A stretch of DNA of 59,007 nt, from the NCBI GenBank assembly GCA_030531905.1, contig JAUNMG010000006.1, positions 1 to 59,007 of the forward strand. Direction: 5' to 3'. The notes below the pieces were generated by a model that saw nothing but the letters and a program-made list of their open reading frames with translations, was not told the origin of the DNA and did no database searches. Position 1 is the stretch's first letter, and every line of letters starts with the position of its first letter. A program made the translations under genes and the position numbers. Source of the DNA: a bacterium (lineage in GTDB: Bacteria > Bacillota_I > Bacilli_A > RF39 > UBA660). Of this stretch, positions 3,036 to 45,848 are shown piece by piece.

Positions 3036-3059
3036 AATAGGGTAATCCCTATTTTTTTT
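3036..3059 (+). terminator. Intrinsic terminator
   Basis: AATAGGG-TAAT-CCCTATT followed by a T run. Confidence 0.7.
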
Positions 3060-3101
3060 CTAATTAAAAGTTTTACAACATATCATTAATTAGGTGATAA
3101 T

Positions 3102-3344
3102 ATGCTTAATAGAATAAAAGACTATATTAATGATAAAGAGTTTAGAATGACTATATTTACAGATAGAATTCATATTATTAATTATTTACAAATTTTATCC
3201 ATTGAAGATGAGCGAGTAGCTTTTTTAACTAATAAAGGAAGAATTATTATAAAAGGTAATAATTTATGTTTAAATAAACTACTAGATGATGAGGTATTAG
3301 TAAGTGGATTTGTTTCTAATATAGAGGTGGATTTCAATGACTAA
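3102..3344 (+). CDS. yqfC: YabP/YqfC family sporulation protein
   Basis: 80 aa, IHIINYLQILSI..I.IKGNNL.LNKLLDDEVLVSG pattern; directly upstream of yqfD. Confidence 0.75.
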   Translation: MLNRIKDYINDKEFRMTIFTDRIHIINYLQILSIEDERVAFLTNKGRIIIKGNNLCLNKLLDDEVLVSGFVSNIEVDFND

Positions 3345-43762: not shown

Positions 43763-44467
43763 ATGAATATATTTGATATTGTAATTATTCTTTTGATTTT
43801 ATTGTCAGGAGTTACAGGACTTAAACAAGGATTGTTAAAATCAGGAATTAACTTAATTGGAACAATTCTTATTTATATTATTGCCTTTAAAATGAAAGAT
43901 AGTATAGGATTGTTTTTATGTAAAGTATGTCCATTCTTTAAGTTTAATGGATATATTACACTAAATATTTTAGTTTATCAGTTAATAGCTTTTGTTTTAA
44001 TAGCGTCAATTTTGTTTAGCGTTTTTGCTATTGTTTTAAAACTTACTGGTATTGTTCAAAAATTAGTAGACTTAACAGTAATACTTACAATACCTTCTAA
44101 AATCGGTGGATTTATAATAGGATTATTAGAAGGATATGTAGTGATGTTTATCATAATTTTGATATTATCTGTACCATTAAGAAATGTAGAGTTGTTTTCC
44201 CAATCAAAACTTGTAGATAAAATGATTAATAATACTCCAATTTTATCATCAACCCTAGATGGAGTAGGTGATGTTATATTTGATGTTTTTCATATTACAA
44301 GTGAAGTTAAAGAAGGAGAAAATGAAAATACTAAAGTAAATATTGATATTATGAAAACATATTTAGATTATAAAATTATAAGTAAAGAAGATGCGATAGA
44401 CTTGGTCGATATGGGTAAATTAAATTCAATAAATGGAATGAGAACATTTGTTGATAATTATCAATAA
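43763..44467 (+). CDS. CvpA (colicin V production) family membrane protein
   Basis: DIVIIL..LLSGVTGLKQGL, SKIGGFIIGLLEG, SKLV..M..NTP; divergent from rnhC as in Bacillus. Confidence 0.85.
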   Translation: MNIFDIVIILLILLSGVTGLKQGLLKSGINLIGTILIYIIAFKMKDSIGLFLCKVCPFFKFNGYITLNILVYQLIAFVLIASILFSVFAIVLKLTGIVQKLVDLTVILTIPSKIGGFIIGLLEGYVVMFIIILILSVPLRNVELFSQSKLVDKMINNTPILSSTLDGVGDVIFDVFHITSEVKEGENENTKVNIDIMKTYLDYKIISKEDAIDLVDMGKLNSINGMRTFVDNYQ

Positions 44468-44498
44468 TTTTAACAATGTGTAGTTATATATCGAAAAA

Positions 44499-44527
44499 TT
44501 GCAAAAATAGAAATATTATGATATGCT
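44499..44527 (+). promoter_or_regulatory. Promoter of putative antitoxin RNA, copy 1
   Basis: TTGCAA, 17 nt, TG-A-TATGCT. Confidence 0.5.
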
Positions 44528-44532
44528 GTATG

Positions 44533-44646
44533 TAGCAAGTATTCTTGCATAAAATAAAAAAGGGAACATTCAGTTTTTCCAAGTTGAATGTCTACCCAAA
44601 TGTTTGGATTTGACACTTATCTTTGCGGATGAGTGTTATTTTTATT
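44533..44646 (+). ncRNA. Putative antisense antitoxin RNA, copy 1
   Basis: Starts after the extended -10 and ends in hairpin GACACTTATC-TTTGCG-GATGAGTGTT plus ATTTTTATTT; antisense to the toxin 3' UTR. Ends are approximate. Confidence 0.55.
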
Positions 44647-44657
44647 TATAGGATTTA

Positions 44658-44741
44658 CTACTTCAAGATAATGAAGAGTAGGCTTATAAGTAAAATGATA
44701 ATAATAAGTAAGATAGAAATTAAAAAATCTTTCTTTCCCAT
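44658..44741 (-). CDS. Putative type I toxin peptide (27 aa), copy 1
   Basis: RBS AGGAGGT; MGKKDFLISILLIIIILLISLLFIILK then TAG TAA; single TM helix. Confidence 0.7.
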   Translation of the reverse strand: MGKKDFLISILLIIIILLISLLFIILK

Positions 44742-44806
44742 ATATCAAAGACCTCCTCTCTTTCTAGATTAGAGGTAGACACTCAACAACTAAATGTTCC
44801 AAGAAA

Positions 44807-44836
44807 AATATAACACGTGTTCGATAAAATAAACAA
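44807..44836 (-). promoter_or_regulatory. Promoter of toxin mRNA, copy 1
   Basis: On the - strand TTGTTT, 18 nt, TG-T-TATATT; predicted +1 near 44800, where the fold-back helix begins. Confidence 0.5.
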
Positions 44837-44844
44837 GAAAAAAC

Positions 44845-44873
44845 TAGAAAAAATAGAAAGAGTATGTTATCAT
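44845..44873 (+). promoter_or_regulatory. Promoter of putative antitoxin RNA, copy 2
   Basis: TAGAAA, 17 nt, TG-T-TATCAT, built across the unique spacer. Confidence 0.45.
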
Positions 44874-44878
44874 GTATG

Positions 44879-44992
44879 TAGCAAGTATTCTTGCATAAAA
44901 TAAAAAAGGGAACATTCAGTTTTTCCAAGTTGAATGTCTACCCAAATGTTTGGATTTGACACTTATCTTTGCGGATGAGTGTTATTTTTATT
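44879..44992 (+). ncRNA. Putative antisense antitoxin RNA, copy 2
   Basis: Same sequence as copy 1. Confidence 0.55.
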
Positions 44993-45003
44993 TATAGGAT
45001 TTA

Positions 45004-45087
45004 CTACTTCAAGATAATGAAGAGTAGGCTTATAAGTAAAATGATAATAATAAGTAAGATAGAAATTAAAAAATCTTTCTTTCCCAT
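45004..45087 (-). CDS. Putative type I toxin peptide (27 aa), copy 2
   Basis: Same sequence as 44658-44741. Confidence 0.7.
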   Translation of the reverse strand: MGKKDFLISILLIIIILLISLLFIILK

Positions 45088-45257
45088 ATATCAAAGACCT
45101 CCTCTCTTTCTAGATTAGAGGTAGACACTCAACAACTAAATGTTCCAAGAAAAATATAACACGTGTTCGATAAAATAAACAAGAAAAAACTAGAAAAAAT
45201 CTTGCAATACTATGCTATAATTAGTTTGGTAATAAGAATTGAAAGATTGGTGTTTTT

Positions 45258-45848
45258 ATGAATTGTCCTAAATGTGGAAAGTCTAATTTTAAAGATTATT
45301 GTATAGTTTGTGGATATATGAAAAATGGAAACTATATTGGTAAAACAAAGGGTGAAAATAGTGACTTAGAAATTATGTTAGGGTATGAGTATGATGATAT
45401 AATACATAATACTAATAATTTAAAAGTATTTTTACTTGGAGGACTATACTTTTGTTACAGAAATTGTTTCTTTGTTGGATTTTTTCTTGAACTATTAAAC
45501 ATATTATTTGTTTACTTTAACGCTTATATTGGTAGTTTTATTGATTTAGGATTTTTTAACTTTTCCGATTTCTTTTTTCTTTTATCAATTATTATTGAAA
45601 AAACATTTTGGGTAATGTTTGCTAATCAATTATATATAAAATGTGCAAAAAGAAAATTAAATAGATGGAAGAAGAAATATTCTTTAGATGAATATAAAAT
45701 GAAAATTGCAAATCAAAATATTAAAAAATTTTTACTACCAGTATTTGCAGTGTTACTATATATTTTTATATTATTTATAGTAGTAATTATTTATAGATAT
45801 CAGAGACATAATCTTCTTAAATGTTTGTTTAAAGTATTTGTTTTATGA
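45258..45848 (+). CDS. Membrane protein with an N-terminal zinc ribbon (DUF2628-like body)
   Basis: CPKC..CIVC, then FLLGGLYFCYR, several TM segments and FANQLY. Confidence 0.55.
   Translation: MNCPKCGKSNFKDYCIVCGYMKNGNYIGKTKGENSDLEIMLGYEYDDIIHNTNNLKVFLLGGLYFCYRNCFFVGFFLELLNILFVYFNAYIGSFIDLGFFNFSDFFFLLSIIIEKTFWVMFANQLYIKCAKRKLNRWKKKYSLDEYKMKIANQNIKKFLLPVFAVLLYIFILFIVVIIYRYQRHNLLKCLFKVFVL

Follow-up and report, generated by a model that had tools for sequence, protein, structure and literature searches.

The window considered here is the stretch of 59,007 nt at positions 1-59,007 of contig JAUNMG010000006.1 (assembly GCA_030531905.1), an AT-rich segment (~26% GC) of the chromosome of a bacterium of the RF39 lineage of Bacilli, and its sequence is present in pig-gut metagenome runs. 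At 44503-45200 it holds a module in two tandem copies, A and B. In each copy a minus strand gene for a hydrophobic 27-aa peptide faces a predicted plus strand gene for a small antisense RNA (sRNA). Judged from sequence comparison and RNA structure prediction, the module is probably a functional peptide-plus-antisense pair of type I toxin-antitoxin (TA) character, with the Gram-positive architecture in which the two RNAs overlap at their 3' sides. An earlier examination of the letters (the sequence-only reading) had described this place as a tandem of 328-bp units. The two-copy tandem stands, but the unit length does not. Tandem Repeats Finder (TRF) gives a single long repeat at 44503-45200 with a period of 346 bp, 2.0 copies and 98% matches, and base-by-base comparison shows that 328 bp is the stretch over which the copies are 100% identical (44527-44854 = 44873-45200). 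Within 44514-44526 the copies have five differences. The features of the module, including the Shine-Dalgarno (SD) sequence and the open reading frame (ORF) of the peptide, are as follows.

Whole module
44503-45200, no strand: whole-module tandem duplication (TRF, repeat search, base-by-base comparison)

Copy A
44807-44836, minus strand: peptide mRNA promoter, -35 TTGTTT at 44836-44831, TG at 44815-44814, -10 TATATT at 44812-44807
44549-44800, minus strand: predicted mRNA of the peptide (putative toxin), ~250 nt, 5' end near 44800, 3' end in the U tract 44561-44549
44774-44800, minus strand: 5' element GGAACAUUUAGUUGUUGAGUGUCUACC, predicted to pair with both arms of the 3' hairpin, or to form a local hairpin on the nascent RNA
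44771-44775, minus strand: anti-SD CCUCU, overlapping the last two bases of the 5' element, SD-paired in every predicted state
44752-44757, minus strand: SD AGGAGG, 10 nt upstream of the ATG
44658-44741, minus strand: ORF of the 27-aa peptide MGKKDFLISILLIIIILLISLLFIILK, stop TAG (homologous ORFs at equal offset elsewhere, frame test)
44562-44597, no strand: shared hairpin 2 (HP2), on the plus strand the central sRNA hairpin, on the minus strand the mRNA 3' hairpin, both terminator stem and partner of the 5' element
44499-44527, plus strand: antisense sRNA promoter, -35 TTGCAA at 44499-44504, TGa at 44519-44521, -10 TATGCT at 44522-44527
44532-44650, plus strand: predicted antisense sRNA, ~120 nt (terminator scan, fold z = -4.0)

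Copy B
45153-45182, minus strand: peptide mRNA promoter (copy A + 346), identical in sequence
44895-45146, minus strand: predicted peptide mRNA, 5' element at 45146-45120, SD at 45103-45098, 3' hairpin at 44943-44908
45004-45087, minus strand: ORF of the identical 27-aa peptide (ORF translation)
44845-44873, plus strand: antisense sRNA promoter, TAGAAA, 17 nt, TATCAT, with an upstream TG; 5 positions differ from copy A
44878-44996, plus strand: predicted antisense sRNA, terminator stem at 44957-44984

The membrane peptide ORF claimed for the minus strand is present twice, and both ORFs (44658-44741 and 45004-45087) encode the same MGKKDFLISILLIIIILLISLLFIILK, with a basic N-terminus, a hydrophobic core of ~18 residues and a C-terminal Lys. 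Upstream of it lies an extended -10 promoter (TTGTTT, then TGtTATATT), whose end is 7 nt ahead of 44800, the position near which the sequence-only reading had placed the transcription start (+1). In the family alignment, this promoter keeps its TTG and TGnTAnnAT positions. The predicted 252-nt mRNA folds with -71.6 kcal/mol (z = -7.3). In this fold the first 27 nt pair with the 3' part and the SD pairs with CCUCU, so that sequestration of the SD in mRNA structure is predicted. The ACCTCT formerly singled out as the partner of the SD is recovered as CCTCT at 44775-44771, paired with AGGAGG at 44757-44752.

The long-distance pairing shows up as two inverted repeats, 44563-44578/44785-44800 and 44583-44596/44774-44787, and a pattern capturing them has 4 matches in the window and 0 in 100 shuffles. 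Both repeats had been noticed before, as helices with one mismatch each. The repeats are there, but the mismatches are G.U wobble pairs in the minus strand RNA, and therefore the fold-back helix is continuous. It has 27 continuous pairs, with -36.4 kcal/mol as minus strand RNA versus -28.3 from the opposite strand.

Conservation of the peptide gene and the fold-back

Is this arrangement particular to the window? The depth of metagenome contigs on 44522-44595 is 5-10 times that of the flanks, and many of the contigs run off into unrelated sequence; therefore many related copies were suspected. A scan of species-representative genomes with a pattern for the 3' hairpin, GGAACATTYAG-N(3-25)-TGARTGTCTACC, gave at least 120 matching loci in species-representative metagenome-assembled genomes (MAGs). 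An independent SD-anchored scan added 77 loci on metagenome contigs, most of which contain the 3' hairpin too. About 170 related modules from other genomes (loci with L numbers below) carry the hallmarks on which the sequence-only reading had relied, i.e. a short membrane peptide, a sequestered SD, a 5'-3' fold-back and a convergent antisense RNA. The carrier MAGs are labelled as uncultured Bacilli, Tenericutes, Erysipelotrichaceae and Firmicutes and come from rabbit, ruminant, chicken, mouse and human hosts; the median GC of the loci is 0.27. Among the loci listed, the RNase HIII and CvpA neighbours of the window recur only at L013 (Firmicutes bacterium CAG:582) and L105, and therefore the modules are dispersed rather than syntenic. 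Tandem arrays are also found in L012, L051, L092 and L093. On viral contigs the hairpin and SD patterns have 0 matches, and distant blastn searches against plasmid and phage records gave no match; an origin from phage or plasmid is thus unsupported.

In most family modules, the nearly invariant GAGAGGAGG precedes a small ORF, at a constant distance from the hairpin. The commonest family peptide has 30 aa, MKTKTFIIKVLKLIAIILFLLIIMIVVIKK, and variants include MKKREYNIKLLRYISLILLLLTLLVLVIKK and MSKRLFIIKVLKHIIIILSLLIIMIIVIKK. The 27-aa type of the window occurs also in L013, L033, L053, L071 and L105 and can be aligned with the 30-aa type. Conservation of the ORF and of the helix in homologs had been proposed as a check on the sequence-only reading, and both are kept across the family. 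The peptide frame is free of stops over 26 codons in 144 of 157 modules, while the numbers for the other two frames are 0 and 45, and the mean hydropathy of residues 9-26 in the same test is 2.33. Intact peptides come in 97 distinct sequences; in every one of them, 1-4 of the six N-terminal residues are Lys/Arg, and 80 of them end in KK. The core is uniformly hydrophobic, not amphipathic. Codon position 2 is the least variable and position 3 the most variable. The conserved coding frame thus encodes a hydrophobic single-helix peptide (<60 aa) and is preceded by its own SD, although in a minority of modules it is frameshifted or truncated. An overlapping 43-aa ORF (MIYGKERFF...) was also considered and was rejected, as its frame is not kept in the 30-aa subfamily.

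The 5' element is conserved across the family, and the anti-SD reads CCUCY or UCUCU. In modules of the 30-aa type (e.g. L009:5106-5346), a nearly invariant CUCCUU within the ORF (Phe-Leu-Leu codons) pairs with the SD in the minimum-energy fold, which makes it a second anti-SD beside the upstream CCUCY. The codons for KK in these modules (AAAAAA) complement the U tract of the sRNA terminator, and the TGA stop lies inside the terminator stem.

Minimum-energy folds were computed for 81 modules whose ORF is intact. In 77 of these folds, the first 32 nt and the last 60 nt form at least 19 pairs with each other; most of the SD window lies in pairs in 74 folds, and the start codon does so in 75. Does the helix also covary? 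Since the genome scan had fixed the 3' hairpin, covariation was sought in the SD-anchored set, where 26 of 64 modules lack the strict 3' hairpin pattern and several have a variant hairpin together with a matching change in the 5' element. For example, GGGAAU/GUUCCC is changed to GGAAAU/GUUUCC in L124, L135 and L146, CAG/CUG to CAA/UUG in L138, L160, L165, L180 and L187, AGUU/AACU to AAUA/UAUU in L155, and GGAAC/GUUCC to GGAGC/GCUCC in L131. Pairs were counted on an alignment trimmed to the 5' element and the two hairpin arms (77 distinct rows). Standard pairs occupy 90.5% of the cells versus 26-47% when the partners are slid, and double-sided changes are seen at 6 pairs (20 cells), where shuffling gives 2.9 pairs (5.9 cells); the observed cell count is not reached in any of 500 shuffles. 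Cognate 5'/3' duplexes have -31.5 kcal/mol versus -30.2 for non-cognate ones (rank 0.34, p = 0.002), and in 75 of 77 combinations the duplex is stronger in the mRNA sense (-33.0 versus -26.2 kcal/mol). RNAalifold on plain MAFFT alignments recovers only the inner fold-back helix and HP2. Because insertions and deletions shift the register in the MAFFT alignments, explicit examples, the trimmed alignment, and the cognate and strand-asymmetry tests were used instead. The covariation that the sequence-only reading had proposed to look for in the fold-back helix is found in the compensatory changes, the double-sided excess and the strand asymmetry, and the statistics together with the explicit examples support selection for the fold-back at the RNA level.

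The antisense RNA gene

The sequence-only reading had assumed a convergent antisense RNA, and in copy A a plus strand terminator (44611-44638) and a promoter (44499-44527) for it are found. The promoter, which begins just outside the interval first described, has 17 nt, including TGa, between TTGCAA and TATGCT, and lies ~110 nt upstream of the terminator. Terminator-like sites on the plus strand are the sole kind in the region that exceeds the shuffle expectation. The predicted sRNA of copy A is made up of hairpin 1 (HP1, 44535-44548), an A-rich linker (44549-44561), HP2 (44562-44597), the terminator stem (44611-44638) and the U tract (44639-44650). Over the final ~100 nt of the mRNA its complementarity is complete, and it ends 8 nt short of the window ORF. 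These features indicate a separate transcription unit, with a promoter and a terminator of its own, for an RNA antisense to the peptide mRNA.

This gene is widely kept in the family, in which not only the promoters but also the terminators of both RNAs are conserved. A promoter-like site at the sRNA position is present in 99 of 113 modules, most commonly as TTGnnn, 14-16 nt, TGn, TATTAT, and a T run follows the sRNA terminator in 112 of the 113. HP1, which lies outside the overlap, has compensatory variants (GCAAG/CUUGC, AUGAAG/CUUCAU, AUGAGA/UCUCAU, UCAGGA/UCCUGA). Among 58 modules of the SD-anchored set, one stem arm of HP2 has an identical sequence in 53 and the other in 43, whereas 32 variants of the loop occur. 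An intact ORF is missing from 31 modules, of which 24 retain the sRNA promoter and terminator, and in several ORF-less modules a 3' stump of the ORF is still visible. Modules that keep the sRNA gene after loss of the ORF have, by analogy, the look of decaying TA loci, for which orphan antitoxin genes are a known end state.

Two variations of the sRNA gene should be noticed. In majority-type modules (L009, L016, L020, L044 and others), an extra covarying hairpin followed by a T run overlaps the -35 of the sRNA, just upstream of the -10; examples are GGAACTTgaaaaAAGTTCC-TTTTT, AGAACTT/AAGTTCT and CGACTT/AAGTCG. Its role could be to stop peptide mRNA transcripts that read through, or to shield the sRNA promoter, and the window copies lack it. 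In L010, L019 and L079, an added hairpin of ~20 nt (GTGCCATAAGGCA) stands between the sRNA terminator hairpin and HP2.

Contigs assembled from RNA agree with both predicted transcripts. One metatranscriptome has a 129-nt contig at 44532-44657, coinciding with the predicted sRNA, and a 176-nt contig that covers 44628-44803 with a depth of 113 and ends at the predicted mRNA start. The depth in this metatranscriptome is 0 at 44457-44494, just outside the module, and ~32 in cvpA. Three rumen RNA-seq runs gave contigs related to L075 inside its predicted mRNA (3055-3300); one ends at 3300, the predicted +1, and no coverage lies beyond 3300 in these contigs. Most of the RNA-seq word matches at L075 were discounted, as they belong to the adjacent tRNA gene (L075:2911-2987).

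Proposed mechanism, known systems and rival explanations

How might such a module work? In the predicted folds of the growing transcript, the local 5' hairpin is formed, and by 60 nt the anti-SD/SD hairpin; the local 5' hairpin then yields to the fold-back once the 3' hairpin has been transcribed. With the 5' element paired to the two arms of the 3' hairpin, an mRNA of full length would close on itself. Closed mRNA may form a stable and translationally silent pool with both ends protected, and the fold-back that stabilises and silences it would also compete with the sRNA. Pairing of the sRNA would begin at the complementary loops of the shared hairpins, zip up to a duplex of ~100 bp and displace the 5' element, and the hypervariable HP2 loop between near-invariant stems may set the recognition between sRNA and mRNA. 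The predicted duplex has 101 bp and -203 kcal/mol versus -105 kcal/mol for the separate RNAs, and in the predicted complex the 5' element is back in its local hairpin with the SD still paired. Since the SD is still paired, decay of the duplex is favoured over a direct block of translation. A double-strand RNase would cut the duplex, in analogy with RNase III in TxpA/RatA and BsrG/SR4, and peptide synthesis would be prevented. If the level of sRNA drops, some mRNA would be opened or processed and then translated, and the peptide would insert in the membrane and lead to arrest or death of the cell.

In Gram-positive type I families, antisense RNA and mRNA overlap in part, with the antisense RNA located on the 3' side (PMC8594479). 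The module resembles the TxpA/RatA, BsrG/SR4 and BsrE/SR5 systems of B. subtilis in its convergent sRNA, which overlaps ~100 nt of the mRNA from the 3' side (PMC8594479), in its small single-helix peptide and in the SD buried in mRNA structure, and by this analogy duplex-directed decay would be the natural mechanism. However, no similarity in sequence or in Rfam or Pfam is found; the peptide is shorter (27-30 aa) and has another charge pattern, the target of the sRNA is the hairpin that closes the 5'-3' fold-back, and the sRNA of the window type stops before the ORF. With Fst/RNAII (par of pAD1) and SprA1/SprA1as, the module shares convergent promoters, an mRNA of ~230-250 nt and a peptide of about 30 aa. 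In par/Fst, a 5' stem-loop (5'-SL) sequesters the SD and an intramolecular helix (5'-UH) sequesters the extreme 5' end (PMC7472228). An SD-sequestering 5' stem-loop and a 5'-end helix are shared as well, with complementary hairpin loops as the likely first contact. The differences from Fst/RNAII are also clear. There is no PXXXG motif (proline is in 1 of 97 peptides), no Fst Pfam hit and no acidic tail at the C-terminus. A bidirectional terminator common to the two RNAs is also absent, the mRNA ending after HP2 and the sRNA after a separate hairpin. Direct repeats complementing the translation initiation region are absent, the sRNA pairing only with the 3' ~100 nt, and the 5' element matches the sRNA hairpin in sense rather than complementing it.

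The fold-back itself recalls Gram-negative systems. Long-distance 5'-3' pairing keeps the full-length toxin mRNAs of hok and aapA1 inert, which is known as fold-back inhibition (PMC8594479, PMC6733600). Pairing of the two ends of the full-length mRNA and predicted metastable hairpins on the nascent RNA are alike in hok/Sok, AapA1/IsoA1 and the present module. In those systems, however, the antisense RNA targets the 5' region or the ORF, and trimming of the 3' end brings about activation, whereas here the sRNA gene is opposite the 3' untranslated region and its product pairs with the 3' region. Moreover, there is neither a conserved mok-like leader ORF nor sequence similarity to hok/Sok. Very short hydrophobic peptides in tandem units, each with a cognate antisense RNA, are also seen in Ibs/Sib, Ldr/Rdl and Zor/Orz of E. 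coli, where short variable segments are thought to confer cognate specificity; gene layout and hosts are different, and there is no homology.

Is the family then a new one? Profile searches of four peptides against Pfam and NCBIfam gave nothing meaningful (no Pfam hit at E<=10), and an exact look-up of 10 family peptides, that of the window included, in a collection of 15 billion proteins found none present. Rfam at E<=10 gave only chance-level hits (tsr26 with E = 2.2, and others) for the window region and a majority-type module. Within an incomplete coverage of the literature, no type I system was found reported for these reduced-genome gut Bacilli. The sequence-only reading had put the case as possibly a new type I family. 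Because no known toxin or antitoxin family matches, and with the hallmarks conserved in about 170 modules, this is supported as the right level of claim.

Several points weigh against a type I TA pair. The peptide resembles no known toxin in Pfam or NCBIfam. The SD is paired in every predicted state, including the sRNA complex, so no direct effect of the sRNA on translation is predicted. The mRNA-sense 3' hairpin is a weak terminator, and transcripts may run on into the sRNA promoter region. The stems of HP2 are more conserved than antisense pairing alone needs, which suggests an additional constraint. The covariation statistics ignore relatedness, and the main genome set was chosen by a fixed 3' hairpin pattern. 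Finally, the RNA contigs are unstranded, possibly with DNA, and related copies blur their depth; they are supportive, not decisive.

Then could the peptide be something other than a toxin? It might be a small membrane protein without toxicity, for instance a subunit with an accessory or regulatory role, whose expression a cis-antisense RNA only tunes, with no addiction or killing. Output that may always be low, given an SD locked in all predicted states, would suit such a protein, and purifying selection for hydrophobicity is expected of any membrane protein. However, there is no conserved partner gene, the flanks of the window being common to only 2 of the at least 120 genome loci. Tandem multi-copy arrays and dispersed placement are habits of TA loci rather than of housekeeping subunits, and ORFs are found frameshifted or deleted while the sRNA gene is retained. 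This explanation is therefore unlikely, though it survives better than the others.

The persistence of the sRNA gene without the ORF in about 24 modules raises another question, whether the plus strand sRNA is the main product, as a trans-acting regulator or a protein-binding RNA, and the peptide gene a frequent but dispensable passenger. The sRNA gene is indeed the best-conserved part, with nearly invariant hairpin stems, and HP1 covaries despite being outside the overlap. Nevertheless, the ORF, SD, 5' element and mRNA promoter are kept in about 85% of modules, and covariation of the 5' element with the hairpin in the mRNA sense makes sense only if the mRNA matters. Orphan antitoxin genes, as mentioned above, are how decaying TA loci are known to end. 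We regard this explanation as improbable, slightly more so than the preceding one.

That the unit is a selfish dispersed repeat, similar to a miniature inverted-repeat transposable element (MITE), with an incidental ORF and incidental 'promoters', is very hard to credit. Short (~350 bp), multi-copy and non-syntenic units with a 27/34-nt inverted repeat, 49 of 173 of them within 600 nt of a tRNA gene, would fit it. But the inverted repeats are internal, with both conserved promoters outside them, and they pair better as RNA from one strand, through G.U, than as DNA symmetry. A single hydrophobic frame stays open in 144 of 157 modules, and neither a transposase, nor a target-site duplication, nor a match on viral contigs, phage or plasmid records was seen. 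Least credible of all is a secreted or membrane-active peptide against other cells, like a leaderless bacteriocin or a phenol-soluble modulin (PSM), since despite a short, cationic-ended, hydrophobic and multi-copy peptide, no immunity, transporter or modification genes are conserved nearby, the core is not amphipathic, and tight control by antisense RNA and SD sequestration is typical of self-toxic products.

With the type I TA pair as the preferred reading, a broader picture can be offered, but only tentatively. The modules may make up an unrecognised type I family that is limited to low-GC Bacilli, host-associated and uncultured (MAGs labelled Bacilli, Tenericutes, Erysipelotrichaceae). In it, one near-invariant hairpin might serve as mRNA terminator, as lock of the 5' end and as target of the antitoxin, and the antitoxin might compete with the fold-back. 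The loop could act as a specificity code among paralogues, and orphan sRNA genes as spare antitoxins.

Type I systems are notoriously overlooked by annotation, and the present case is a conserved gene of 27-30 aa that gene callers systematically drop. T1TAdb holds 24 families, all from genomes already in the literature (PMC8594479). The about 170 sequenced variants give a comparative data set on the silencing of toxin mRNAs, and the HP2 loop is a candidate for a natural specificity code. In addition, the module marks loci that are multi-copy and vary from strain to strain, in gut lineages that are abundant yet uncultured (those of pigs, ruminants, rabbits, chickens, mice and humans).

Placement in other genomes and the surroundings in the window

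The tRNA genes within 600 nt of the 49 modules are those for Leu (13), His (7), Ala (6), Met (6) and others. This proximity was judged, without a formal test, to be far above random placement; the window has no tRNA gene. Some modules come from MAGs labelled as Muribaculaceae (L002, L025, L043, L064, L067) or Clostridia (L028, L029, L057, L080). Most of the fetched loci are of low GC, and these labels are likely due to mis-binning or mislabelling. Another locus, L119, has an orphan sRNA gene at 50.7% GC and may be a chimeric contig or a transfer.

In the entire window, the sole Rfam family above the gathering threshold is a T-box leader (RF00230, 21061-21265, plus strand, 115.6 bits). The module is adjoined by a plus strand gene at 45258-45848, whose 196-aa product has an N-terminal CxxC...CxxC zinc-ribbon-like start and hydrophobic segments, with no Pfam hit on record. 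The only public contig with an identical 196-aa protein breaks at the tandem repeat. Compared with its nearest relatives, L105 and L013, the module (window 44480-45200) has 79-83% nucleotide identity, while the RNase HIII gene beside it has 65% identity with that of L105, lower than the module itself.

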